DNA of 64,000 bases. It comes from Heterodontus francisci (Eukaryota). A program made the position numbers and the translations under genes. The stretch lies in the NCBI RefSeq assembly GCF_036365525.1, contig NC_090375.1, positions 28,718,602 to 28,782,601 on the forward strand, given 5' to 3'. The first letter of the stretch is position 1. The number at the start of each line of letters is the position of its first letter. The notes beneath the pieces are model-generated. The model was not told the DNA's origin and did not search any database. It was given only the letters and a program-made list of their open reading frames with translations. This document shows positions 37,873-64,000 of this stretch, in pieces.

Positions 37873-38143
37873 TACTCTCTGTTTTCTGTCTGTTAAGCAA
37901 TTCTCAATCCATACCAGTATATTACCCCCCGTCCCAAGTGCTCTAATTTTGTTTACTAACCTCCTGTGTGGGACCTTACCAGAAGCCTTCTGAAAATCCA
38001 CATCCACTGGTTCTCCTTTTCTGTACTACAGGAAACATCCTCAAAAAACTCCAACAAGTTTGCCAAACATGATTTCCCTTTCATAAATTCATGTTGACTC
38101 TGCCCAATCATATCCTTATTTTCCAAGTGTCTCTTCCCAACCA

Positions 38144-38362
38144 GGAGAGAGTCGGGAGCAACGGCGGATCTGGGAGGAACCTACCGGGGAGAGAATAAAT
38201 CCAGACCCAGGCTCAGGGCCTTCCACTTACCCGGACAGAGTCGGGAGCAGCGGTGGACCTGTGAGGAACTTACAGGGGACAGAAAAAATCCAGACCCAGG
38301 CTCGGGGCCTTCCACTTGCCTGGAGAGAGTTGGGAGCAGCAGCGGCGGACCTGCGAGGAACC
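38144..38362 (+). repeat. 89-bp tandem monomers (x2.5) at the CR1 5' end
   Basis: gga[g/c]agagt[c/t]gggagca recurs at 38144, 38233 and 38322; aatccagacccaggctc..ggccttccactt is repeated. Confidence 0.85.
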
Positions 38363-40867
38363 AAGTACCTCTCCGCACCAAAGTTTGAAGAAATTTTTTT
38401 TAAAATCAAACCGTGACATTACAGGAAAGCAGTGAGTTGATTGGTTGGTGAGTATTTGCTGCTTAGAAATGCAGTCTAAACAACAGCGAGTTTAAAAATG
38501 TTAAAAATATTAAGTACAAATCGCAAGTAAAAGGTTGATAGCTGGTGAGTCTTATCTTTTATTTGAAAATAAGGTTTGTTTTTGAATAAGGTTTGTTACT
38601 ATTGGTGAGGTTATTACTACTATTGTTAGCATTTTTGTATTAGCAGGGTATATTAATAGTGGTAAGATAGATTAGTATTGGTAAAGTTTAGTATTAGCAG
38701 TAGTAAGGTTATTATTACTATTGATAGGGTTATAGTATTAGTAGCCTCAGGGTTTATGAATAGCAGGGTTTAGTTGTAGTACCATGGTTTGTTATCCAAC
38801 AGATAGAGGAATGGTAGGGCTGATCCAACCTCAGGAGTCCACATCCTGTGCTATGTGGCAACTCCAGGAAGCTTCTTGGGTCTGGATAACCATATGTGCA
38901 GGAAGTATCGTCAGTTGCAGCAGCTTGAGCTCTGGGTTTCGGAACTTGAGCAGCAGCTGGCAACACTGCAGTGCATTCGTGAGAATGAGAGCTTCGTGGG
39001 TAGCACGTTTTTAGATGTGGTCACCCCACAGCTTAAGAGTAGACCGGGACAGAGGGAATGGGTGACCAGCAGACAGTCAGGAAGAAACAGGCAGTTAGTG
39101 CCAGAGACCCCTGAGTGCGTCTCATTCTCCAGTAGGTTTTCGGTACTGAATACTGAGGAAGGTGATGGTTCATCTGGGAAGTGTAGCCAGAGCCAAGGCC
39201 ATGGCACCACAGGTGGCTCAGCTGCACAGGGGGCACAAGGAAAACTGGACGAGCAATAGTGATAGGAGAATCGATAGTCAGGGGAACAGACATGCATTTC
39301 GTTGGCCGCAGATGTGAATCCAGGATGGTATGTTGCCTCCCTGGTGCCAGGGTCAAGGATGCCACTGAACGTCAGCAGAGCACCCTGAGGCGGGAGGGCG
39401 AACAGCCAGCAGTCGTGGTCCACATCAGTACCAACGACATAGGTAGGAAGAGGGATGTGGTCCTGCAGAAAGAGTTTAGGGAGCTGGGTAAGAAATTAGC
39501 AAGCAGGACCTCAAAAGTAGTCGTCTCCGGATTACTCCCAGTACCACGTGCAATAGAAATAGGAATAAGAGGATAGTGAAGATGAATGCTTGGCTGGAAA
39601 GATGGTGCAGAAGGGAGGGCTTTAGATTCCTGGGACACTGGGACCAGTTCTGAGAAGGTGGGATCTGTACAGGCTGGACAGGTTGCATCTGAACAGAGCT
39701 GGGACAAATTTCTTTATGGGGCAATTTGCTACTGCTACTGGGGAGGGTTTAAACTAACTTGGCAGGGATGTGGGAACCAGGAGGAAATATCAGAGAGGAA
39801 TACCAAGGTGCACAGAATACTGAAAGAAATAGATAGTACTAGAGAAGAAAATAGTAATTTATTAGGTGGGGTCAGAGTAAGGAAGAAAGTAATAAAGTCT
39901 AAATCAGGATTAATGTGCATGTATGTGAATGCATGGAGTGTTGTTAATAAGATTGGTGAGTTACAGGCGCAGAGTGACATGTGGAAATATGATGTTGTGA
40001 CTATAACAGAGGCCTGGCTCAAACAAGGGCAAGACTGGGTATTGATATTCCCGGATACAAGGTGTTCAGGAAAGATAGAAAAGGGAAAAGGGGGGAGGAG
40101 GGTGGAAATCATGGCGGTACTGACGATAATTTTTCAGTCTTCCTTCGACTCAGGGGTGGTGCCAGAGGACTGGAGAATTGCAAACATTACACCCTTGTTC
40201 AAAAAATGTGTAAAGATAATCCCAGCAACTACAGACCAGTCAGTTTAACTTTGGCGGTGAGTACACTTCTAGAAAGAATAATTCGGAACGCTATTAATAG
40301 TCACATGCAAATGCAGGTTAATTAAGGAAAGCCAGCATGGATTTCTTAAGGGAAAATCATATTTAATTAAATTGCTGGAGTTTTTTGAGGAGGTAACAGA
40401 GAGGGTTGATGAAGGCAGTGCAGATGATCTTGTGTACATGGACTTTCTAAAGGTGTTTGATACAGTGCCACACAACACACCTGTGAGCAAAGTTATACCT
40501 AATGGAATTAAAGGGACAGTAGCAACATGGATATGGAATTGGCTGAGTGACAGGAAACAAAGAGTACTGGTTAATGGATGTTTTTTGGATGTTTTTCGGG
40601 CTGGAGGAAGGTTTGTAGTGCAGTTCCCCAGGGGTCAGTGTTGGGACCCTTGCTTTTCCTGATATAAATTAATGACCTTGACCTTGGTGTACAGGGCACA
40701 ATTTCAAAGTTTACTGATGTTACGAACCTTGCAAGCATTGTAAACTGTGAGGAGGATGGTGTCGAACCGCAAAAGGACATGGACAAGTTGGTGGAATGGG
40801 CAGACAGGTGGCAGATGAAAATCAATGCAGAGAAATGTGAAATGGTTCATTTTGGTAGGAAGAACAT

Positions 40868-42000: not shown

Positions 42001-42997
42001 ACAGAATCACAGAATAATACAATGCAGAAGAGGCCCTTCGGCCCATCGAGTCTGCACCGATGCATTAAAACATCTGACCTGTCTACCTAATCCCATTTGC
42101 CAGCACTTGGCCCATAGCCTTGAATGTTATGACGTGCCAAGTGCTCATTCAGGTACCTTTTAAAGGATGTGAGGCAACCTGCCTCTACCACCATCCCAGG
42201 CAGGGCATTCCAGACCGTCACCACCCTCTGGGTAAAAAAGTTCTTCCTCAAATCCCCCTTAAACCTCCTGCCCCTCACCTTAAACGTATGACCCCTCGTA
42301 ACTGACCCTTCAACTAAGGAGAACAGCTGCTCCCTATCCACCCTGTCCATGCCCCTCATAATCTTGTACACCTCGATCAGGTCACCCCTCAGTCTTCTCT
42401 GCTCCAGCGAAAACAATCCAAGCCTATCCAACCTCTCTTCATAGCTTAAATGTTCCATCCCAGGCAACATCCTGGTGAATCGCCTCTGCACCCCCTCCAA
42501 TGCAATCACAAGCCAAAAGACTTGCAGGTTGTTAGGTAAATTGGCCATTATAAATTGTCACTAGTATAGGTAGGTGGTAGGGAAATATAGGGACAGGTGG
42601 GGATGTTTGGTAGGAATATGGGATTAGTGTAGGATTAGTATAAATGGGTGGTTGATGGTCGGCACAGACTCGGTGGGCCGAAGGGCCTGTTTCAGTGCTG
42701 TATCTCTAATCCTTCCTATAATGTGGCGACCAGAATTGCACACAGTACTCCAGCTGTGGCCTTACCAAAGTTCTGTACAACTCCAACATGACCTCCCTGC
42801 TTTTGTAATCTATGCCTCGATTGATAAAGGCAAGTGTCCCATATGCGTTTTCCACCACCCTATTAACCTGCCCTTCTGCCTTCAGAGATCTATGGACAAA
42901 CACGCCAAGGTCCCTTTGTTCCTCGGAACTTCCCAGTGTCAGGCCATTTATTGAATACTTCCGTGTCACATTACTCCTTCCAAAGTGTATCACCTCA
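42001..42997 (-). mobile_element. CR1 3' fragment nested in the family-C CR1
   Basis: EVIHFGRSN...EQRDLGVFVHRSLK...VRPQLEYCVQFWSPHYRKD, then ALEGVQRRFTRMLPG...; tail at 42001-42060. Confidence 0.9.
42511..42709 (+). mobile_element. 5'-truncated HE1-type V-SINE
   Basis: ccaaaagacttgcagg...ggtcggcacagactcggtgggccgaagggcctgtttcagtgctgtatctcta, matching the 3' half of 49862-50218. Confidence 0.85.
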
Positions 42998-44383: not shown

Positions 44384-47113
44384 CAGTCTCCCTTTCTTTC
44401 CCAGAATCCTATTTCCCAGTCTCACAGTCTCCCCTTTCCCCAGTCTCCAACTCTCACCCTGACCCTCATTCCCCTGTCGCCCACTCTCCCCATTCCCCAG
44501 GCTCCCATTCTCTCCAACCCCCCCATTCCCCAGTCTCCCCATTCCCCAGTCTCCCACTCTCCCCATTCCTCAGTCCCCCACTCTCCCCGTTCCCCAGTCT
44601 CCCATTCTCCCCTTTCCCCAGTCTCCCATTCTCCCCAACCCCCCCAATCCCCATCTCAAATTCTCCCCGTTTCCCAGTCTCCCAGTCTCCCATTCCCCAG
44701 TCTCCCACTCTACCTGACCCTCATTCCCCAGTCTCCCACTCTCCCCATTCCTCAGTCTCCCACTCTCCCTGACCCCCATTGCCAGTCTCCCACTCTCCCC
44801 AGTCCCCAGTCTCCCACTCTCCCCTTTACCCAGTCTCCCACTCTCCCCATTCCCCAGTCTCGAACTCTCCCCATTCCCTAGTCTCCCACTCTCCCCTTTC
44901 CCCAGTCTCCAAGTCTCTCCATTCCCCAGTCTCCCACTCTCCCCATTCCCCAGTCTCCCACTCTCCCTTTTCCCCAATCTCCCACTCTCCCCGATCCCCA
45001 GTCTCCCACTCTCCCCATTTCCCAGCCCCCCACTCTCCCCTTTCCACAGTCTCCCACTCTCCCTGACCCCATTCCCCAGTCTCCCACTCTCCCCGTTCCC
45101 CAGTCTCCCACTCTCCCCGTTCCCCAGTCTCCCACTCTCCCCATTCCCCAGTCACCCACTCTCCCCATTCCCCAGTCTCCCACTCACCCCGTTCCACAGT
45201 CTCCCACTCTCCATTTCCCAGCCTCCCACTCTCCCCCTTCCCCAGTGTCCCACTCTCCCCGTTCCCCAATCTCCCATTCTTCCCAACCCCCCATTCCCCA
45301 GTCTCCCACTCTCTCCATTCCCCAGTCTCCCACCATCTCCATTCCCCGGTCTCCCACTCTCCCCGTTTCCCAGTCTCCCACTCTCCCCTTTCCCCAGTCT
45401 CCCACTCTCCCTGACCCTCATTCCCCAGTCTCCCACTCTCCCCATTCCCCAGCCTCCCACTCTCCCCGCTCGCCAGTCTCCCATTCTCCCTTTTCCCCAG
45501 TCTCCCACTCTCCCCCTTCCCCAGTCTCCCAATCTCCCTTTCCCCCAGTCTCCCACTCTCCCCGTTCCCCAGTCTCCCATTCTTCCCAACCCCCCATTCC
45601 CCAGCCTCCCACTCTCCCCGCTCCCCAGTCTCCCATTCTCCCTTTTCCCCAGTCTCCCAATCTCCCCTTCCCCAGTCTCCCAATCTCCCTTTCCCCCATT
45701 CTTCCCAACCCCCCATTCCCCAATCTCCCATTCTTCCCAACCCCCCATTCCCCAGTCTCCCACTCTCTCCATTCCCCACTCTCCCACTCTCCCCGTTTCC
45801 CAGTCTCCCACTCTCCCCATTCCCCAGTCTCCCATTCTCTCCTTTGCCCAGTCTCCCATTCTCCCCAACCCCTCCATTCCCCAGTCTCCCACTCCCCATT
45901 CCCCAGTCTCCCACTCTCCGCAACCCCCATTCCCCAGTCTCCCACTCTCCCCTTTCCCCAGTCTCCCATTCTTCCCAACCCCCATTCCCCAGTCTCCCAC
46001 TCTCTCCATTCCCCAGTCTCCTACTCTCCCCGTTCCCCAGTCTCCCATTCTCCCCTTTCCCCAGTCTCCCACTCCCCCTGACTCTCATTCCCCAGTCTCA
46101 CACTCTCCCCATTCCCCAGTCTCCCACTCTCCCCTTTGCCAAGTCTCCCATTCTCCACAACCCCTCCTTTCCCCAGTCTCCCACTCTCCATGACCCTCAT
46201 TCCCCAGTCTCCCACACTCCCCATTCCCCAGTCTCCTACTCTCCCCAACCCCATTCCCAAGTCTCCCACTCTCCCTTTCCCCAGTTTCCCACTCTCTCTG
46301 ACCCCCATTCTCCAGTCTCCCATTCTTCCCAACCCCCCATTCCCCAATCTCCCACACTCTCCATTCCCCAGTCTCCCACTCTCTCCATTCCCCAGTCTCC
46401 CACTCTCCCCATTTCCCAGTCTCCCACACTCCCCGTTTCCCAGTCTCCCACTCGCCCCTTTCCCCAGTCTCCCACTCTCCCTGACCTTCATTCCCCAGTC
46501 TCCCACTCTCCCCATTCCCCAGTCTCCCATTCTCCCCTTTGCCCAGTCTCCCATTCTCCCCAACCCCTCCATTCCCCAGTCTCCCACTCTCCCCATTTCC
46601 CAGTCTCCCACTCTCCCCATTCTCCCCTTTCCCCAGTCTCCCACTCTCCCCAACCCCCATTCCCCAGTCTCCCACTCTCCCCTTTCCCCAGTCTCCCATT
46701 CTTCCCAACCCCCCATTCCCCAGTCTCCCACTCTCTCCATTCCCCAGTCTCCCACTCTCCCCGTTTCCCAGTCTCCCACTCTCCCCATTCCCCAGTCTCC
46801 CACTCTCCCCTTTCCCCAGTCTCCCACTCTCCCTGACGCTCATTCCCCAGTCTCCCACTCTCCCCGTTCCCCAGTCTCCCATTCTCCCCAACCCCTCCAT
46901 TCCCCAGTCTCCCACTCTCCCCATTTCCCAGTCTCCCACTCTCCCCATTCCCCAGTCTCCCACTCTCCCCAACCCCCATTCCCCAGTCTCCCACTCTCCC
47001 CTTTCCCCAGTTTCCCACTCTCTCTGACCCCCATTCCCCAGTCTCCCACTCTCCCCAACCCCCACTCCCCAGTCTCCCCATTCCCCAGTCTCCCACTCTC
47101 CCCATTCCCCAGT
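44384..47113. repeat. C/T-rich minisatellite, core unit ~24 bp (TTCCCCAGTCTCCCACTCTCCCCA)
   Basis: About a hundred imperfect units. They produce 8-aa periodic pseudo-ORFs in all frames (GESGRLGN, SPVSHSPH). Confidence 0.95.
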
Positions 47114-47116
47114 GAC

Positions 47117-49681
47117 TAATATGCTTCACCTGTGAGATGTGGGAAGTCCGTGATGCTTCCAGCATTCCGGACGACTACATCTGCAGGAAGTGTACCCAGT
47201 TGCAGCTCCTCACAGACCACATGGATCGGTTGGAGCGGCAACTGGATGCACTTAGGAGCATGCAGATGGCGGAAAGCGACATAGACAGGAGTGTTAGAGA
47301 AGAGGTTACACCCAAGGTGCAGGCAGATAGATGGGTGACCGCTAGAAGGGGCAGGCAGTCAGTGCAGGAATCCCCTGTGTCTATCCCCTTCTCTAACAAA
47401 TATACCGTTTTGGATACTGTTGTGGGGGATGGCCTATCAGGGGAAAACAGCAGCAGCCAGAGCAGTGGCACCACGGCTGGCAAAGTTGTCCAGCAGGGAG
47501 GGACAAAGCGCAGAAGAGCAATAGTTATAGGGGACTCTATAGTCAGGGGCACAGATAGGTGCTTCTGTGGACGTGAAAGAGACTCCAGGATGGTATGTTG
47601 CCTCCTTGGTACCAGGGTCAAGGATGTCTCTGAACGGACAGGGGGCATTCTGAAGGGGGAGGGTGAACAGCCAGAGGTTGTGGTACACATCGGTACCAAC
47701 GACATAGGCAGGAAGAGTGATGAGGTCCTGCAGGGGTAGTTCAGGGAGTTAGGTAGAAAGTTAAAAAACAGGACCTCTCGGGTTGTAATCTCGGGATTAC
47801 TCCCTGTGCCACGTGCCAGTGAGGCTAGGAATAGGAAGATAGTGCAGCTAAACATGTGGCTGAACAGCTGGTGTAGAAGGGAGGGTTTCAGATATCTAGA
47901 CCATTGGGATCTCTTCAGGGACAGATGGGACCTGTACAAGAAGGACAGGTTGCATCTAAACTGGAGGGGCACTAATATCCTGGCTGCAAGATTTGCTAGC
48001 GTCACTCGGGACGTTTTAAACTAGTGTGGCAGGGGGGTGGGAACCAGAGCAGTAGGACAGCTAGTGAAATAAATGAGGAAAATAGTAAATAAGGCTAGTA
48101 GGACTAAGAGGAGGAGCAGGCAGGGAGATGTTGCTGAGCACAGCGGGACTGGTGGTCTGAAGTGCATTTGTTTCAATGCGAGAAGTATAACGCGTAAGGC
48201 AGATGAACTGAGAGCTTGGATTAGTACTTGGAAATATGATGTTGTTGCTATTACAGAGACTTGGTTGAGGGAAGGGCAGGATTGGCAGCTAAATGTTCCA
48301 TGATTTAGAAGCTTCAGGCGGGATAGAGGGGGATGCAAAAGGGGTGGGGGAGTTGCATTACTGGTTAAGGAGAATATCACAGCTGTACTGTGGGAGGACA
48401 CCCCAGAGGGGTCATGCAGTGAGGCAATATGGGTAGAGCTCAGGAATAGGAAGGGTGTTGGGGGTTTACTACAGGCCTCCCAACAGCCAGCAGGAGGTAG
48501 AGGAGCAGATATGTAGACAGGTTTTGGAAAGATGTAAAGGTAACAGGGTTGTGGTGGTGGGTGATTTTAACTTCCTCTATATTGACTGGGACTCACTTAG
48601 TGCTAGGGGCTTGGATGGGGCAGAATTTGTGAGGAGCATCCAGGTGGGCTTCTTGAAACAGTATGTAGATAGTCCAACTAGGGAAGGTGCCATTCTGGAC
48701 CTGGTATTAGGGAATGAGCCCGGCCAGGTGGTCGAAGTTTCAGTGGGGGAGCATTTCGGGAACAGTGACCATAATTCCATAAGTTTTAAGGTACTTGTGG
48801 ATAAGGATAAGAGTAGTCCTCGGGTGAAGGTGCGAAATTGGGGGAAGGCTAATTTTAACAATAGCAGGCAGGAACTGAAGAGTTTAGATTGGGGGCGGCT
48901 GTTTGAGGGTAAATCAACATCTGACATGTGGGAGTCTTTCAAACGTCAGTTGATTAGAATCCAGGACCAGCATGTTCCTGTAAGGAAGAAGGACAAGTTT
49001 GGCAAGTTTTGGAAGCTTGGATAATGCGGGATATTGTGAGCCTCGTCAAAAAGTAAAAGGAAGCATTCGTAAGGGCTGGAAGGCTAGGAACAGACGAGGC
49101 ACTTGAGGAATATAAAGGCAGTAGGAAGGAACTTAAGCAAGGAGTTAGGAGGGCTAAAAGGGGTCATGAAAAGTCATTGGCAAACAGGATTAAGGAAAAT
49201 CCCAAGGATTTTTATACGTATATAAAGAGCAAGAGGGTAACCAGGGAAAGGGTTGGCCCAGTCAAGGACAGAGATGGGAATCTATGTGTGGAGCCAGAGG
49301 AAATGGGCAAGGTGCTAAATGAGTACTTTGCATCAGTATTCACCAAAGAGAAGGACTTGGTGGATGATGAGCCTAGGGAAGGGAGTGCAGATAGTCTCAG
49401 TCATCTCATTATCAAAAAGGAGGAGGTGTTGGGTGTCTTGCAAAGCATTAAGGTAGATAGGTCCCCAGGGCCTGATGGGATCTACCCTAGAATACTGAGG
49501 GAGGCAAGGGAAGAAATTGCTGGGGCCTTGACAGAAATCTTTGCATCCTCATTGGCTACAGGTGAGGTCCCAAAGGACTGGAGAATAGCCAATGTTGTTC
49601 CTTTGTTTAAGAAGGGTGGCAAGGATAATCCAGGAAATTATAGGCCGGAGAGCCTTACGTCAGTGGTAGGGAAACTATTAG
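47117..49681 (+). mobile_element. CR1 family A: ORF1 and 5' half of ORF2 (APE endonuclease to start of RT), disrupted
   Basis: CFTCEMW...ICRKC zinc finger, leucine zipper, IVIGDSIVRG / VHIGTNDIG esterase. EN motifs FNARS, TETWL, YYRPP, VVGDFN, LDLVL, SDH. Also SPGPDG and NYRPESLTS. Several stops. Confidence 0.93.
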
Positions 49682-49861: not shown

Positions 49862-50218
49862 GGGCGGCACAGTGGTGCAGTGGTTAGCACCGCAGCCTCA
49901 CAGCTCCAGCGACCCGGGTTCAATTCTGGGTACTGCCTGTGTGGAGTTTGCAAGTTCTCCCTGTGTCTGCGTGGGTTTCCTCCGGGTGCTCCGGTTTCCT
50001 CCCACATGCCAAAGACTTGCAGGTTGATAGGTAAATTGGCCATTAGCAATTGCCCCTAGTATAGGTAGGTGGTAGGGAAATATAGGGACAGTTGGGGATG
50101 TGGTAGGAATTTGGAATTAGTGTAGGATTAGTATAAATGGGTGGTTGATGGTCGGCACAGACTCGGTGGGCCGAAGGGCCTGTTTCAGTGCTGTATCTCT
50201 AAACTAAACTAAACTAAA
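49862..50218 (+). mobile_element. Full-length HE1-type V-SINE
   Basis: tRNA-like head with A box (tggtgcagtgg) and B box (ggttcaattc); V-domain gggtttcctccgggtgctccggtttcctcccaca; CR1-like tail ending (TAAAC)n. Confidence 0.9.
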
Positions 50219-52279
50219 CCCTCAAACAGCCGCCCCCAATCTAAATTTTTCAGTTCCTGCCTAATATTGTTATAATTAGCCTTCCCCCAATTTTGCACCT
50301 TCACCTGAGGACTACTCTTATCCTTATCCACAAGTACCTTAAAACTTATGGAATTATGGTTACTGCTCCCGAAATGCTCCCCCACTGAAACTTCGACCAC
50401 CTGGCCGGGCTCATTCCCCAATACCAGGTCCAGAATGGCCCCTTCCCTAGTTGGACTATCTACATACTGTTTCAAGAAGCCCTCCTGGATGCTCCTCACA
50501 AATTCTGCCCCATCCAAGCCCCTAGCACTAAGTGAGTCCCAGTCAATATAGGGGAAGTTAAAATCACCCACCACCACAACCCTGTTACCTTTACATCTTT
50601 CCAAAACCTGTCCACATATCTGCTCCTCTACCTCCCGCTGGCTGTTGGGAGGCCTGTAATAAACCCCCAACATCGTGACTGCACCCTTCCTATTCCTGAG
50701 CTCCACCCACAATTGCCTCACTGCATGAACCGTCTGAGGTGTCCTCCCGCAGTACAGCTGTGATATTCTCCTTAACCAGTATTGCAACTCCCCCACCCCT
50801 TTTACATCCCCCTCTATCCCGCCTGAAGCTTCTCAAGCCTGGAATATTTAGCTGCCAATCCTGCCCTTCCCTCAACCAAGCCTCTGTAATAGCAACAACA
50901 TCATATTTCCAAGTACTAATCCAAGCTCTAAGTTCATCTGCCTTACCCGTTATTCTTCTCGCATTGAAACAAATGCACTTCAGACCACCAGTCCCGCTGT
51001 GCTCAGCAACATCTCCCTGCCTACTCTTCCTCTTAGTCCTACTGGCCTTATTTACTATGTCCTCCTCATTTATTTCACTAGCTGTTCTACTGCTCTGGTT
51101 CCCACCCCCCTGCCACACTAGTTTAAACCCTCCCGAGTGACGCTAGCAAACCTTGCAGCCAGGATATTAGTGCCCCTCCAGTTTAGATGCAACCTGTCCC
51201 TCTTGTACAGGTCCCATCTGTCCCTGAAGAGAGCCCAATGGTCCAGATATCTGAAACCCTCGCTTCTACACCAGCTGCTCAGCCACGTGTTTAGCTGCAC
51301 TATCTTCCTATTTCTAGCATCACTGGCATGTGGCACAGGGAGTAATCCAGAGATTACAACCCTTGAGGTCCTGTTTTTTAACTAACTACCTAGCTCCCTG
51401 AACTCCCCCTGCAGGACCCCGTCACTCTTCCTCCCTACGTCATTGGTACCGATGTGTACCACAACCTCTGGCTGGTCACCCTCCCCCTTCAGAATGCCCC
51501 CTGTCCGTTCAGAGACATCCTTGACCCTGGCACCAGGGAGGCAACATACCATCCTGGAGTCTATTTCACGTCCACAGAAGCGCCTATCTGTGCCCCTGAC
51601 TGTAGAGTCCCCTATAACTATTGTTCTTTTGCGCTTTGTCCCTCCCTGCTGGACAACATTGCCAGCCGTGGTGCCACTGCTCTAGCTTCTGCTGTTTTCC
51701 CCTGATAGGCCATCCCCCACAACAGTATCCAAAACGGTATATTTGTTAGAGAGGGGGATAGCCACAGGGGATTCCTGCACTGACTGCCTGCCCCTTCTAG
51801 CGGTCACCCATCTATCTGCCTGCACCTTGGATGTAACCACTTCTCTAAAACTCCTGTCTGTGACGCTTTCCGCCACCTGCATGCTCCTAAGTGCATCCAG
51901 TTGCCGCTCCAACCGATCCATGCGGTCTGTGAGGAGCTGCAACTGGGGACACTTCCTGCAGATGTAGTTGCCCGGAACGCTGGAAGCGTCACGGACCTCC
52001 GACATCTTACAGGTGAAGCACTTCACCCCTCTGACTGACATTTATATCACTAATTAATAAATTAATTTAAAATAAATAAATGCTTATTAAATCCTTACTA
52101 AATTATGATCCACTTAACTATGTGGTCCCTAGTGCTAGATTTCTACAATAAATACTAAATGCTATCTAAATACAGTAATCTCCTTCCTCTGGTTTAGTTA
52201 CTCTACTTATTAAGTAGTTAATTAGTGTTTTAATCAATTTTTATCAGTTTTATTTTCAAATTCAGTACAGATTCCCTGC

Positions 52280-52651: not shown

Positions 52652-53000
52652 TCCTCCCCATTCCCCAGTCTCCCACTCTCCCCGTTTCCCAGTCTCCCAC
52701 TCTCCCCGTTCCCCAGTCTCCCACTCTCCCCGTTCCCAATCTTCCACTCTCCCCGTTCCCCAGTCTCCTACTCTTCCCGTTCCCCAGTCTCCCACTCTCC
52801 CCATTCCCCAGTCTCCCACTCTCCCCATTCCCCAGTCTCCCACTCGACCCCGACTCCCGTCCCCCAGTCTCCCACTCTCCCCCGACTCCCGTTCCCCATC
52901 TCTCACTCTCCCCCGGCTCCCGTTCCCCAGTCTCCCATCTCCCCCGGCTCCCGTTCCCCAGTCTCCCATCTCCCCAGGCCCCCACTCCCTCTTTCCCCCG
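52652..53000. repeat. Continuation of the 24-bp C/T-rich minisatellite
   Basis: Same TTCCCCAGTCTCCCACTCTCCCC units, decaying toward 53000. Confidence 0.9.
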
Positions 53001-53428: not shown

Positions 53429-54224
53429 ATATTACTATATAAACTATAAGCTAGTTTTCAATCACACTGCTGGTTCACCCTCTCAATGAACTATTTCATT
53501 TACTTGGAAAAGCAATCGATAGATATGCAATTTACCTACATAATAATCACTGCACTTCAAAAGTAATTAATTGTGTAATGTGTTTTGCAATACTTTATTG
53601 CAATAAAACCAAATATAAATGCACGTATTATAGTTAGAACTTTTGAAATATCTCATTTCAGAAAACTTGGTGATATCTTGGAATTTTATTCAGTGTTTTC
53701 AGAGGACAGGGCACACATTAGATTGCTCTCATTTTAGAAGTGCTACTTATCGTTATTTGACTACATTTGGTTCAGGGATGTAGGATAAATAACCTTGTCT
53801 TTTTCCATATTTTATAGATTTATTTTCTGTCCACACAGCCTCCCTCCTATAAAACTAGAGGGCGCACTTCCACAATCTGGCTAAAAATAAGCAAAATGCA
53901 TCCTTTGAGAGTATGTAAGTGGGTCATCCTTCGGTTTGACTTCATGATCTTCTATGTAAAATTCCTATCAACTACTGCTAAATATACCCAGGACTCTAAG
54001 GTATCCGTAATCCTTATCTTAATTAAACCACTCTCATCTTCACCCTTTCTGCTGTAAATAGTATTTTGACCTTGGAACATTGGTTACTAAATGGCAATAG
54101 TTTAAAAAAAAGAGTGCTGGATTCCTGTGGGATTAAGTCATAGTTCAGGATGGGAAAATTACTATTGTTATCAGCCTAGGAAAGCTTATGGAGGGGTGTC
54201 AGTAATCTATTATGAATATAAAAT

Positions 54225-58328: not shown

Positions 58329-60376
58329 TGAATTTGAAAATAAAACTGATAAAAATTGATTAAAACACTAATTAACTACTTAATAAGTAGTGTAACTAAA
58401 CCAGAGGAAGGAGATTACTGTATTTAGATAGCATTTGGTATTTATTGTAGAAATCTAGCACTAGGGACCACATAGTTAAGTGGATCATAATTTAGTAAGG
58501 ATTTAATAAGTATTTATTTATTTTAAATTAATTTATTAATTAGTGCTAGAAATGTCAGTTAGAGGGGTGAAGTGCTTCACCTGTGAGATGTGGGAGGTCC
58601 GTGACACTTCCAGCGTTCCGGGCGACTACATCTGCAGGAAGTGCACCCAGTTGCAGCTCCTCACAGACCGCATGGATCGGTTGGAGCGGCAACTGGATGC
58701 ACTTAGGAGCATGCAGGTGGCGGAAAGTGTCATCGACAGGAGTTTTAGAGAAGTGGTCACACCCAAAGTGCAGGCAGATAGTTGGGTGACCGCGAGAAGG
58801 GGCAGGCAGTCAGTGCAGGAATCCCCTGTGGCTATCCCCCTCTCTAACAAGTATACCGTTTTGGATACTGTTTGGGGGGGGATTGCCTATCAGGGGAAAA
58901 CAGCAGCAGCCAGAGCAGTGGCACCATGGATGGCACTGTTGTTCAGCAGGGAGGGACAAAGCGCAGAAGAGCAATAGTTATAGGGGACTCTATAGTCAGG
59001 GGCACAGATAGGCGCTTCTGTGGACATGAAAGAGACTCCAGGATGGTATGTTGCCTCCCTGGTGCCAGGGTCAAGGATGTCTCTGAACGGACAGGGGGCA
59101 TTCTGAAGGGGGAGGGTGAACAGCCAGAGGTTGTGGTACACATCGGTACCAATGACATAGGTAGGAAGAGTGACGGGGTCCTGCAGGGGGAGTTTAGGGA
59201 GTTAGGTAGTAAATTAAAAAACAGGACCTCAAGGGTTGTAATCTCTGGATTACTCCCTGTGCCACATGCCAGTGAGGCTAGAAATAGGAAGATAGTGCAG
59301 CTAATCACGTGGCTGAACAGCTGGTGTAGAAGCGAGGGTTTCAGATATCTGGACCATTGGGATCTCTTCAGGGACAGATGGGACCTGTACAAGAAGGACG
59401 GGTTGTATCTAAACTGGAGGGGCACTAATATCCTGGCTGCAAGGTTTGCTAGCGTCACTCGGGAGGGTTTAAACTAGTGTGGCAGGGAGGTGGGAACCAG
59501 AGCAGTAGAACAGCTAGTGAAATAAATGAGGAGGACATAGTAAATAAGGCCAGTAGGACTAAGAGGAAGAGCAGGCAGGGAGATGTTGCTGAGCACAGCG
59601 GGACTGGTGGTCTGAAGTGCATTTGTTTCAATGCAAGAAGAAAAACGGGTAAGGCAGATGAACTTAGAGCTTGGATTAGTACTTGGAAATATGATGTTGT
59701 TGCTATTACAGAGACTTGGTTGAGGGAAGGGCAGGATTGACAGCTAAATGTTCCAGGCTTTAGAAGCTTCAGGCGGGATAGAGGGGGATGTAAAAGGGGT
59801 GGGGGAGTTGCATTACTGGTTAAGGAGAATATCACAGCTGTACTGCGGGAGGACACCTCAGACGGTTCATGCAGTGAGGCAATTGTGGGTGGAGCTCAGG
59901 AATAGGAAGGGTGCAGTCACGATGTTGGGGGTTTACTACAGGCCTCCCAACAGCCAGCGGGAGGTAGAGGAGCAGATATGTAGACAGGTTTTGGAAAGAT
60001 GTAAAGGTAACAGGGTTGTGGTGGTGGGTGATTTTAACTTCCCCTATATTGACTGGGACTCACTTAGTGCTAGGGGCTTGGATGGGGCAGAATTTGTGAG
60101 GAGCATCCAGGAGGGCTTCTTGAAACAGTATGTAGATAGTCCAACTAGGGAAGGGGCCATTCTGGACCTGGTATTAGGGAATGAGCCCGGCCAGGTGGTC
60201 GAAGTTTCAGTGGGGGAGCATTTCGGGAACAGTGACCATAATTCCATAAGTTTTAAGGTACTTGTGGATAAGGATAAGAGTAGTCCTCGGGTGAAGGTGC
60301 TAAATTGGGGGAAGGCTAATTATAACAATATTAGGCAGGAACTGAAAAATTTAGATTGGGGGTGGCTGTTTGAGGG
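58329..60376 (+). mobile_element. CR1 family A 5' half (5' UTR, ORF1, EN)
   Basis: ORFs 58543..58977 and 58872..59477 (ORF1 with a frameshift in a G-run); 59477..59740 and 59748..60386 (EN). Confidence 0.93.
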
Positions 60377-60603
60377 TTTAGTTTAGTTTAGTTTAGAGAT
60401 ACAGCACTGAAACAGGCCCTTCGGCCCACTGAGTCTGTGCCGACCATCAACCACCCATTTATACTAATCCTACACTAATTCCATATTCCTACCACATCCC
60501 CACCTGTCCCTATATTTCCCTACCACCTACCTATACTAGGGGCAATTGCTAATGGCCAATTTACCTATCAACCTGCAAGTCTTTGGCATGTGGGAGGAAA
60601 CCG
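60377..60603 (-). mobile_element. HE1-type V-SINE, 5'-truncated here
   Basis: Reverse complement of 49991-50218, inserted at the same CR1 position. Confidence 0.9.
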
Positions 60604-61629: not shown

Positions 61630-61960
61630 GGGCGGTGCAGTGGTTAGCACCGCAGCCTCACAGCTCCAGCGACCCAGGTTTGGTTCTGGGTACTGCCTGT
61701 GCGGAGTTTGCAAGTTCTCCCTGTGACTGTGTGGGGTTCCGCCGGGTGCTCCGGTTTCCTCCCACAGCCAAAGACTTGCAGGTTGATAGGTAAATTGGCC
61801 ATTGTAAATTGTCCCTAGTGTAGGTACGTGGTAGGAGAATGGTGGGTATGTGGTAGGGAATATGGGATTAATGTAGGATTAGTATAAATGGGTGGTTGTT
61901 GGTCAGCACAGACCCGGTGGGTCGAAGGGCCTGTTTCAGTGCTGTATCTCTCTATGACAC
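61630..61960 (+). mobile_element. HE1-type V-SINE
   Basis: gggcggtgcagtggttagcaccgcagcc...gggtgctccggtttcctcccaca...gggcctgtttcagtgctgtatctc. Confidence 0.9.
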
Positions 61961-61965
61961 TCTAT

Positions 61966-64000
61966 GAGGGTTGGCCCACTCAAGGACAGAGAAGGGAATC
62001 TATGTGTGGAGCCAGAGGAAATGGGCAAGGTGCTAAATGAGTACTTTGCATCAGTATTCACCAAAGAGAAGGACTTGGTGGATGATGAGCCTAGGGAAGG
62101 GAGTGCAGATAGTCTCAGTCATCTCATTATCAAAAAGGAGGAGGTGTTGGGTGTCTTGCAAAGCATTAAGGTAGATAGGTCCCCAGGGCCTGATGGGATC
62201 TACCCTAGAATACTGAGGGAGGCAAGGGAAGAAATTGCTGGGGCCTTGACAGAAATCTTTGCATCCTCATTGGCTACAGGTGAGGTCCCAAAGGACTGGA
62301 GAATAGCCAATGTTGTTCCTTTGTTTAAGAAGGGTGGCAAGGATAATCCAGGAAATTATAGGCCGGAGAGCCTTACGTCAGTGGTAGGGAAACTATTAGA
62401 GAGGATTCTTCGGGACAGGATTTACTCCCATTTGGAATCAAACGAACTTATTAGCGAGAGAGAGCATGGTTTTGTGAAGGGGAGGTCGTGTCTTACTAAT
62501 TTGATTGAGTTTTTTGAGGAAGTGACGAAGATGATTGATGAAGGAAGGGCAGTGGATGTTATCTATATGGACTTTAGTAAAGCCTTTAACAAGGTCCCGC
62601 ATGGCAGACTGGTACAAAAGGTGAAGTCACACGGGATCAGAGGTGAGCTGGCAAGATGGATACAGAACTGGCTCGGTCATAGAAGACAGAGGGTAGCAGT
62701 GGATGGGTGTTATACTGAATGGAGGGATGTGACTAGTGATGTTCTGCAGGGATCAGTGCTGGGACCTTTGCTGTTTAGTTTAGAGATACGGCACTGAAAC
62801 AGGCCCTTCGGCCCACCGAGTCTATGCCGACCATCAACCACCCATTTATACTAATCCTACCCTAATTCCATATTCCTACCACATCCCCACCTGTCCCTAT
62901 ATTTCCCTACCACCTACCTATACTAGGGGCAATTTATAATGGCCAATTAACCTATCACCCTGCAAGTCTTTGGCATGTGGGAGGAAACCGGAGCACCCGG
63001 AGGAAACCCACGCAGACACAGGTAGAACTTACAAACTCCACACAGGCAGTACCCAGATTTGAACCCGGGTCGCTGGAGCTGTGAGGCTACGGTGCTAACC
63101 ACTGCACCACTGTATATATTGTAGTATATATAAATGATTTAGAGGAAAATGTAGCTGGTCTGATTAGTAAGTTTGCGGAAGACACAAAGGTTGGTGGAGT
63201 TGCAGATAATGATGAGGATTGTCAGAGGATACAGCAGGATACAGATCGGTTGGAGACTTGGGCGGAGAAATGGCAGATGGAATTTAATCCGGACAAATGT
63301 GAGGTAATGCATTTTGGACGGTCTAATGCAGGTGGGAAGTATACAGTAAATGGCAGAACCCTTAGGAGTATTGACAGGCAGAGAGATCTGGGCGTACAGG
63401 TCCACAGGTCACTGAAAGTGGCAACGCAGGTGGATAAGGTAGTCAAGAAGGCATACGGCATGCTTGCCTTCATCGGTCGGGGCATAGAGTATAAAAATTG
63501 GCAAGTCATGTTGCAACTGTACAGAACCTTAGTTAGGCCACACTTAGAATATTGCGTGCAATTCTGGTCGCCACACTACCATGTGGAGGCTTTGGAGAGG
63601 GTACAGAGGAGGTTTACCAGGATGTTGCCTGGTCTGGAGGGCATTAGCTATGAGGAGAGGTTGGAAAAACTCGGATTGTTTTCACTGGAATGACGGAGGT
63701 GGAGGGGCGACATGATAGAGGTTTACAAAGTTATGAGCGGCATGGACAGAGTGGATAGTCAGAAGCTTTTTCCCAGGGTGGAAGAGTCAGTTACTAGGGG
63801 ACATAGGTTTAAGGTGCGAGGGGCAAAGTTTAGAGGGGATGTGCGAGACAAGTTTTTTACACAGAGGGTGGTGAGTACCTGGAACTTGCTGCCGGGGGAG
63901 GTGGTGGAAGCTGGTACGATAGCGACGTTTAAGAGACATCTTGACAAATACATGAATAGGAAGGGAATAGAGGGATATGGTCCCCGGAAGTGCAGAAGGT
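61966..64000 (+). mobile_element. CR1 family A ORF2 (RT and C-terminus), running off the window
   Basis: ORF 61964..62797 (HGFVKGRSCLTNL, YMDFSKAF, QGSVLGPLLF) and ORF 63250..63693; the catalytic motif reads FAED in this copy. Confidence 0.93.
62775..63113 (-). mobile_element. HE1-type V-SINE inserted in the CR1 RT
   Basis: Reverse-complement HE1 sits between the GPLLF and VVYINDL codons. Confidence 0.9.

Follow-up and report, generated by a model that had tools for sequence, protein, structure and literature searches.

Comparative evidence for a candidate programmed -1 frameshift between ORF1 and ORF2 of esterase-CR1 retrotransposons

Introduction

How does a CR1 retrotransposon translate the reading frame that encodes its enzymes, when that frame opens at the stop codon of ORF1 and, in one family, offers no AUG ahead of the endonuclease? 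CR1-group elements have been described as the dominant retrotransposons of most vertebrates (PMC13343379). Accounts of how LINE ORF2 is translated call the process unclear or unconventional and take reinitiation as their working model (PMC3708506, PMC5009743, PMC2881922). The question is raised by a 64,000-nucleotide stretch of Heterodontus francisci DNA, called the window below (NC_090375.1 of assembly GCF_036365525.1, positions 28,718,602-28,782,601 of the forward strand). Coordinates are those of the window, on its forward strand unless marked otherwise.

In the window, ORF1 of one CR1 copy ends, in its own frame, with GAG GGT TTA AAC TAG (59463-59477), and the -1 frame at this point is the ORF2 frame. 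Both facts had been described in a sequence-only reading of the window, which proposed that ribosomes slip on U UUA AAC and thereby produce an ORF1-ORF2 fusion. The comparative evidence assembled here argues in favor of that proposal, and we put at about 0.8 the probability that the conserved U UUA AAC at the end of esterase-CR1 ORF1 is a programmed -1 frameshift site giving such a fusion.

The CR1 element and its copies

The element in the window is an esterase-ORF1 CR1 LINE. Its ORF1 (58552..59477) begins with a Cys-rich part and, as far as the sequence can be read, a probable coiled coil, followed by an SGNH esterase (PF13472, E 1e-11; ZfL2-1 esterase structure 4c1b, E 1e-24), and the close homologues with named hosts come from sharks, rays and chimaera. 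ORF2 has an APE endonuclease (59612..60386; PF14529, E 1e-12) and a CR1-type reverse transcriptase (RT) fragment (61958..62797; PF00078, E 8e-20). The SGNH-esterase ORF1 and the APE and RT domains of ORF2 are among the features that CR1 membership calls for, with the RT piece non-contiguous in this copy: other sequence lies between it and the endonuclease, and it may belong to a different CR1 copy. The junction of ORF1 and ORF2 matches consensus elements labelled CR1 in the available part of the PMC13343379 supplement. Moreover, a quick ORF1 tree, in which the tail columns were kept, sets the window element apart from the L2-like rows.

Every CR1 copy in the window is broken somewhere. The copy just described, which we call the 59468 copy after the position of its heptamer, changes frame in ORF1 at a G run (58874-58881), with profile matches in two frames, and its endonuclease has one stop and a frame break. 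Three further copies have TTTAAAC followed directly by a stop: a second family-A copy (TAG, 48015..48024), whose linker is later frame-broken; an inverted near-duplicate of the 59468 copy (TAG, 51118..51127, minus strand); and a copy of the divergent family C (76% identity; TAA, 39748..39757), in which the -1 frame is open up to the endonuclease. All four sites are followed by a G-rich tract, in agreement with the sequence-only reading.

That reading had also counted three family-A copies, and the site is indeed present in all three, but two of them are probably not independent. Over 2275 nt, the 59468 copy and its inverted counterpart at 51127 (58329-60603 versus 52264-49992) show 96.9% identity, and they have in common an endonuclease frame break and an insert placed at an identical breakpoint. 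They are thus probably one insertion that was locally duplicated in inverted orientation, and the window amounts to about two independent families.

The junction between ORF1 and ORF2

The in-phase heptamer U UUA AAC, the predicted -1 shift site, occupies 59468..59474, and the ORF1 stop TAG lies right behind it at 59475..59477. Upstream, the ORF2 frame is closed by a TAG at 59450..59452, five codons 5' of the heptamer. Downstream, it reads F-K-L-V-W-Q and continues through a linker of about 46 codons (59474..59611) into the endonuclease sequence LKCICFNAR (59612-59638). The linker has no AUG, and of its three frames only -1 is open, with 0 stops; the two others contain 4 and 8. An ATG in the ORF2 frame of family A is first met at 59922-59924, about 103 codons inside the endonuclease and 3' of the NAR and ITETW motifs. 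The earlier claim that no ATG precedes the endonuclease therefore holds for family A and is restricted to it, since an in-frame ATG (39913-39915) stands at the start of the family C endonuclease.

Within the window, TTTAAACTA occurs 5 times versus 0.78 expected, a count reached in 0 of 100 shuffles; four of the occurrences are CR1 junctions and the fifth, at 54106, is unrelated. The junction site as a whole is about 40 nt long.

The same arrangement of frames recurs in a set of 17 junctions, defined below. The endonuclease lies in the -1 frame at 12 of the 14 junctions that reach it, across at least 8 different linker lengths, and the other two copies are frame-broken. (For L025, the frame was taken from the metagenome-locus scan, as its motif pattern match was spurious.) None of 8 linkers tested had a stop in the -1 frame, and their other frames contained 1-10; the probability of finding a frame open by chance ranges from 0.008 to 0.32 per linker. 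At 11 of the 17 junctions the -1 frame is shut no more than five codons upstream. Together, the open linker and the closed frame ahead of it indicate that the linker is probably translated, with ribosome entry at or near the ORF1 stop.

Entry at this point could occur in more than one way. In termination-reinitiation, the mechanism described for the studied LINEs such as SART1 and L1 (PMC3708506, PMC5009743, PMC2881922), ribosomes would stop at the ORF1 end and restart on an adjoining -1-frame codon, whether AUG, near-cognate or any other, and TTTAAAC-stop would serve as a termination-context or tethering signal. This scheme, too, would explain why the linker is open and the frame of ORF2 fixed. 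Family A has a GUG that overlaps the stop, family C has an AUG at the endonuclease start, and an ORF2-frame AUG lies 2 nt past the stop at 4 of the 17 junctions; UAAUG is found at 3 of 18 consensus junctions in the PMC13343379 material. The lack of an AUG in family A is no proof of frameshifting, because L1 ORF2 initiation has been described as independent of its AUG (PMC5009743).

Conservation of the heptamer

A protein-anchored metagenome scan yielded 49 loci, 19 with a readable ORF1 end and 30 without. Nine of the readable loci end in Leu-Asn-stop (LN-stop) and two are broken with the heptamer nearby. The site is absent at the other 8 of the 19, namely at five loci of distant SGNH proteins and three that appear to be L2-like, an absence that weighs against the frameshift reading. 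The 17-junction set includes the four window copies as well as L008 and L019, two of the 30 loci with no readable end, which were added by motif search; four of its junctions were located through the motif itself and nine through the ORF1 stop alone.

TTTAAAC is present at 16 of the 17 junctions and GTTAAAC at the remaining one, and a stop (TAG, TAA or TGA) lies directly behind the heptamer at 15. In the 14 junctions that could be aligned, TTAAACT never varies, in contrast to the bases on either side. Of 13 lineages in the alignment, 12 spell the terminal Leu as TTA (the remaining one is misaligned at a frame break, and L025 is off by one base), while the other conserved Leu columns of ORF1 show TTA in 9 of 101 cases. 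Similarly, the terminal Asn codon is AAC in 12 of 12 cases, compared to 25 of 60 overall. In a codon alignment of 13 lineages, only 2 of 41 other conserved columns are invariant at the codon level.

A search of the PMC13343379 supplement, covering the first 400 letters of each consensus in the available part, extends this result and takes up the survey of CR1 consensus sequences suggested by the sequence-only reading. TTTAAAC-stop gave 23 matches, of which 18 were read by eye as ORF1/ORF2 junctions, in 12 species, and one more consensus, from a catshark, has the heptamer without the stop. An independent anchor, the codons for DGLH, gave 16 matches, 8 of them in CR1 ORF1; the site is present in all 7 that reach the ORF1 end. 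Twelve alternative spellings produced 23 matches in the available consensus table, none of them at a CR1 ORF1 end (by eye). Common synonymous variation of Leu-Asn, which had been named as the observation that would speak against a shift site, is thus not found in either set. The sequences are related, so all of these counts overstate independence.

We take the 12 species codes to stand for sharks, rays, chimaera, bowfin, teleost, coelacanth, frog, lizard and crocodilians. On the sequences compared, then, the heptamer plus stop is conserved at the codon level across jawed vertebrates, from sharks to reptiles.

Could the conservation simply reflect the protein? If the esterase needed a C-terminal Leu-Asn and the codons were inherited by chance, the elements' relatedness would favor invariance, as would the 2 of 41 codon-invariant columns elsewhere, and Leu-Asn does close a helix-like tail. 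This explanation is largely refuted by the variation of synonymous sites elsewhere in the same loci, and it also fails one position upstream: the third base of the codon before Leu-Asn is T at 16 of 17 junctions, even though the residue it encodes varies. Together with the ORF1 ends of more distant relatives (see below), these results leave protein constraint with shared ancestry very improbable indeed.

The conserved codons also bear on reinitiation. A conserved start codon overlapping or adjoining the stop is not seen, AUG being present in only 4 of 17 and 3 of 18 junctions. Instead, a restart would fall on codons as different as GTG, ACT, GTA, GAC, GGT and GCT, and the identity of the stop is variable, while the seven bases just upstream are fixed, and reinitiation gives no cause for an in-phase X XXY YYZ. 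As the sole explanation of the junction we regard it as unlikely, and in lineages with a suitable AUG it may coexist with frameshifting as a second route.

A further possibility is that the block is kept for a reason unconnected with ribosomes, for example as a DNA or RNA protein-binding site, as a splice or branch-point signal, or through base-adding slippage by a polymerase. Contigs from four runs and four organisms are informative here: their loose ends cluster at 59459-59461 and 59498-59499 in all four (depth here counts contigs, and one of the runs, X1, may stem from the source sample), and loose ends at both borders of the block indicate that divergent families have 59461-59498 in common and little beside. 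None of the 40 variants listed out of 146 falls in 59460-59487. The block thus reaches about 20 nt beyond the stop and is G-rich, and GTTTAAAC is palindromic in shark-type copies, both of which might suit a binding site. However, the first G of this palindrome varies, and the motif is always in one phase, directly ahead of a stop. Polymerase slippage also fits poorly, as the runs here are 3 nt long and slippage-prone runs are cited at about 9 nt (PMC5009743). We consider a non-ribosomal explanation quite improbable.

The sequence-only reading had noted a second, overlapping heptamer, G GGU UUA (59465..59471). This one is found in 3 of the 4 window copies and shows no conservation beyond the shark-type families; because it is absent at 48015 and in all amniote-type loci, it was rejected as a conserved element.

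ORF1 ends in distant relatives

If the heptamer is a shift site, one might ask what becomes of it in relatives whose ORF1 ends differently. Among 60 close homologues that are complete at the C-terminus, 44 have an LN end. Among 113 distant ORF1 representatives there are 55 LN, 10 GN and 2 KN ends, and the other ends, 46 in all, count against the frameshift reading. Of 66 distant ORF1s ending in N, 61 have L, G or K before it (residues with XXA codons), compared to a background of 37%. The preceding residue is also restricted. Before LN, residues Q, E, K, M or W occur in 0 of 50 cases and residues with only pyrimidine-ending codons in 28 of 50; before GN, the residue is Gln in 8 of 9, and both KN ends are preceded by Ser.

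The heptamers that fit these ends, U UUA AAC, G GGA AAC and A AAA AAC, all belong to the four listed as most shift-prone (PMC5009743). For the GN and KN ends the heptamer is read back from amino acids only, and so it is from the proteins that we infer a switch of heptamer; DNA of GN- and KN-ending relatives was not found in viral contigs, plasmids or phages, and GTDB contigs gave 4 weak matches. The quick tree groups GN, KN and one LN end in a single clade (SH-aLRT 94), an arrangement that calls for no fewer than 2-3 switches. Reinitiation gives no cause for such switches with a matched preceding residue, T3/G3/A3 swaps are unexpected for a binding site, and relatives that end in GN, KN or otherwise argue against a protein requirement for Leu-Asn. 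L2-like relatives point the same way: their ORF1s end without LN and share the SGNH fold of the solved ZfL2-1 esterase, so the esterase fold probably does not require it.

Several individual proteins deserve mention. One distant ORF1 clade (P0189, P0197, P0219, P0223, P0228 and P0238) shares a conserved x-K-N that lies about 8-11 residues short of the C-terminus and is compatible with a putative A AAA AAC some distance ahead of the stop. F-F-R or F-F-H ends are found in another distant group. The CR1 ORF1 protein P0012, 68% identical to that of the window, is filed under Pseudomonas aeruginosa in NCBI, which is likely contamination from shark or ray DNA. Finally, P0283 is a gene model from a ray in which one frame spans the esterase, the linker and the endonuclease; it is a prediction on what is probably a mutated copy and was left out of the evidence.

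The search for a stimulator

Three features of a frameshift signal are present at the junction: an in-phase X XXY YYZ, an overlapping -1 ORF that runs into a conserved domain, and conservation of the heptamer beyond what the protein needs. A fourth, a base-paired stimulator 5-9 nt downstream, was not found. No conserved stem, pseudoknot or long-range partner was detected, with tools that do not model pseudoknots directly. Minimum free energies compared with shuffles gave z-scores near 0 at most junctions (L025 was one base off in this set); the exceptions, L024 over 70 nt (z -2.6) and L004 over 100 nt (z -2.0), have nothing in common with the other junctions. RNAalifold predicted 0 pairs across the junction alignment, in which L008 and L025 are one base off. 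In a duplex scan, the best duplexes were near the shuffled null in 7 of 8 cases; the outlier is family C, with a partner far downstream and apparently outside the collinear part of the copy. Rfam contained no family matching the junction. A downstream pseudoknot, one of the structures suggested by the sequence-only reading, was therefore rejected, with folding, RNAalifold, the duplex scan and Rfam all giving it no support.

The other suggested structure was a G-quadruplex. A G-tract follows nearly all junctions; in the 59468 copy it occupies 59481..59498, with its onset 7 nt past the heptamer. Of 15 junctions that could be assessed, only 9 match a two-tier G-quadruplex pattern; among background positions, 9% match. 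According to a 2016 review, G-quadruplexes can stimulate shifting when placed in synthetic constructs, and a natural example was not then known (PMC5009743). Here, the quadruplex is a weak candidate for a stimulator, and the tract may merely encode Gly-rich residues (Q-G-G-G-N in the 59468 copy). The pause signal is consequently the least certain part of the frameshift reading. Besides the G-tract, slow termination at the adjoining stop is a candidate, and in one case a nearby stop is required for shifting (PMC5009743).

A model for CR1 ORF2 translation

The preferred reading, a -1 frameshift on U UUA AAC, would operate as follows. Most ribosomes would terminate at UAG and release ORF1 protein (ORF1p). 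A minority would slip one base back on the heptamer, with the Leu and Asn tRNAs re-pairing on UUU and AAA, and the shifted ribosomes would take CUA as their next codon and go on through the linker, the endonuclease and RT. The frequency of the shift would fix a product ratio like that of Gag and Gag-Pol. The fusion could also tether the enzyme to ORF1p assemblies, considering that ZfL2-1 ORF1p dimerises and binds membranes (PMC3905857).

A broader version of the model would make -1 frameshifting the ancestral route to ORF2 in vertebrate esterase-CR1s and in the GN- and KN-ended lineages, with a Gag-Pol-like fusion as product, and with stimulation by the stop next to the site together with a naturally occurring G-tract or G-quadruplex in place of a pseudoknot. 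Taken as a whole, this broader version is speculative, and we think it rather doubtful that all of its parts are correct.

In amniote-type CR1s (L003, L004, L008 and L009), an ORF2-frame ATG lies two bases past the ORF1 stop, besides the heptamer; this ATG is possibly a second route of ORF2 expression.

Comparison with known systems

Viral -1 sites (coronavirus IBV U_UUA_AAC, retroviral gag-pol, equine arteritis virus G_UU(A)) are the closest parallel. U_UUA_AAC is among the most shift-prone heptamers, and G_UU(A) is a natural variant (Atkins review, PMC5009743). These sites have in common with CR1 the in-phase heptamer, a polymerase in the -1 frame and a layout running from structural protein to enzyme, and CR1 family A has no start of its own for the enzyme. 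Unlike the viral sites, the CR1 junction belongs to a non-LTR element, adjoins the stop, has no stem-loop or pseudoknot found 5-9 nt downstream, and has no protease domain seen nearby. The CR1 site would thus resemble a viral shift site without the classical helical stimulator, which makes the junction a candidate for a new kind of stimulator.

Frameshifting has been claimed for LINEs before: according to a figure legend in a review, Dictyostelium TRE5-A and TRE3-A require a -1 frameshift for ORF2 (PMC5911963). These are APE-type non-LTR elements like CR1, but they are amoebozoan and their ORF1s are unrelated (PMC5006619). In Paramecium LINEs, which form a separate clade, recoding of ORF2 was suggested from sequence, by +1 shift, reinitiation or readthrough (PMC5405496). 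Human L1 and silkworm SART1 have bicistronic LINE mRNAs in which ORF2 depends on ORF1 translation (PMC3708506, PMC5009743, PMC2881922); termination-reinitiation there gives a free ORF2p, whereas a fusion is predicted for CR1. Nearest in protein content are the vertebrate esterase-ORF1 CR1s and ZfL2-1, an L2 element, with SGNH-esterase ORF1, APE and RT as here. The L2-like esterase elements differ from CR1 in having no slippery site: in L018, L031 and L035, ORF1 ends with TGA CTG followed by a C-rich stretch. They may translate ORF2 in another way.

The available parts of a 2026 CR1 survey (PMC13343379) and a squamate survey (PMC11303007) contain nothing on frameshifting or a slippery site, and those of PMC11835228, PMC4255032, PMC7175516, PMC8764243 and PMC4700185 nothing on CR1 frameshifting. 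A CR1 frameshift proposal was not found in the full-text papers searched, a set that leaves aside the CR1 papers of 1997-2003 and Repbase notes, which may mention the overlap.

If the frameshift reading is correct, a major LINE clade uses the retroviral solution, with its enzyme fused to ORF1p, and the -1 shift would likely replace the restart described for other LINEs as the source of RT protein. Annotations that begin ORF2 at its first AUG would be wrong, with family A losing about 103 codons from the start of the endonuclease, and constructs for CR1 retrotransposition would have to keep the junction intact.

Other repeats in the window

A C-rich 24-bp satellite of about 108 copies (44411-47113) extends up to the point where the 48015 CR1 copy is broken on its 5' side, and a shorter array of it lies near the 51127 copy (52654-52944); the satellite yields long spurious ORFs. 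A SINE-like repeat of about 200-340 nt is found within CR1 ORF2 sequence at 60386-60603, 62773-63113, 61634-61951, 49869-50209 and 42507-42709. Upstream of the family C ORF1, an 89-bp tandem repeat (2.5 copies, 38140-38362) may be the 5' UTR array of that element.
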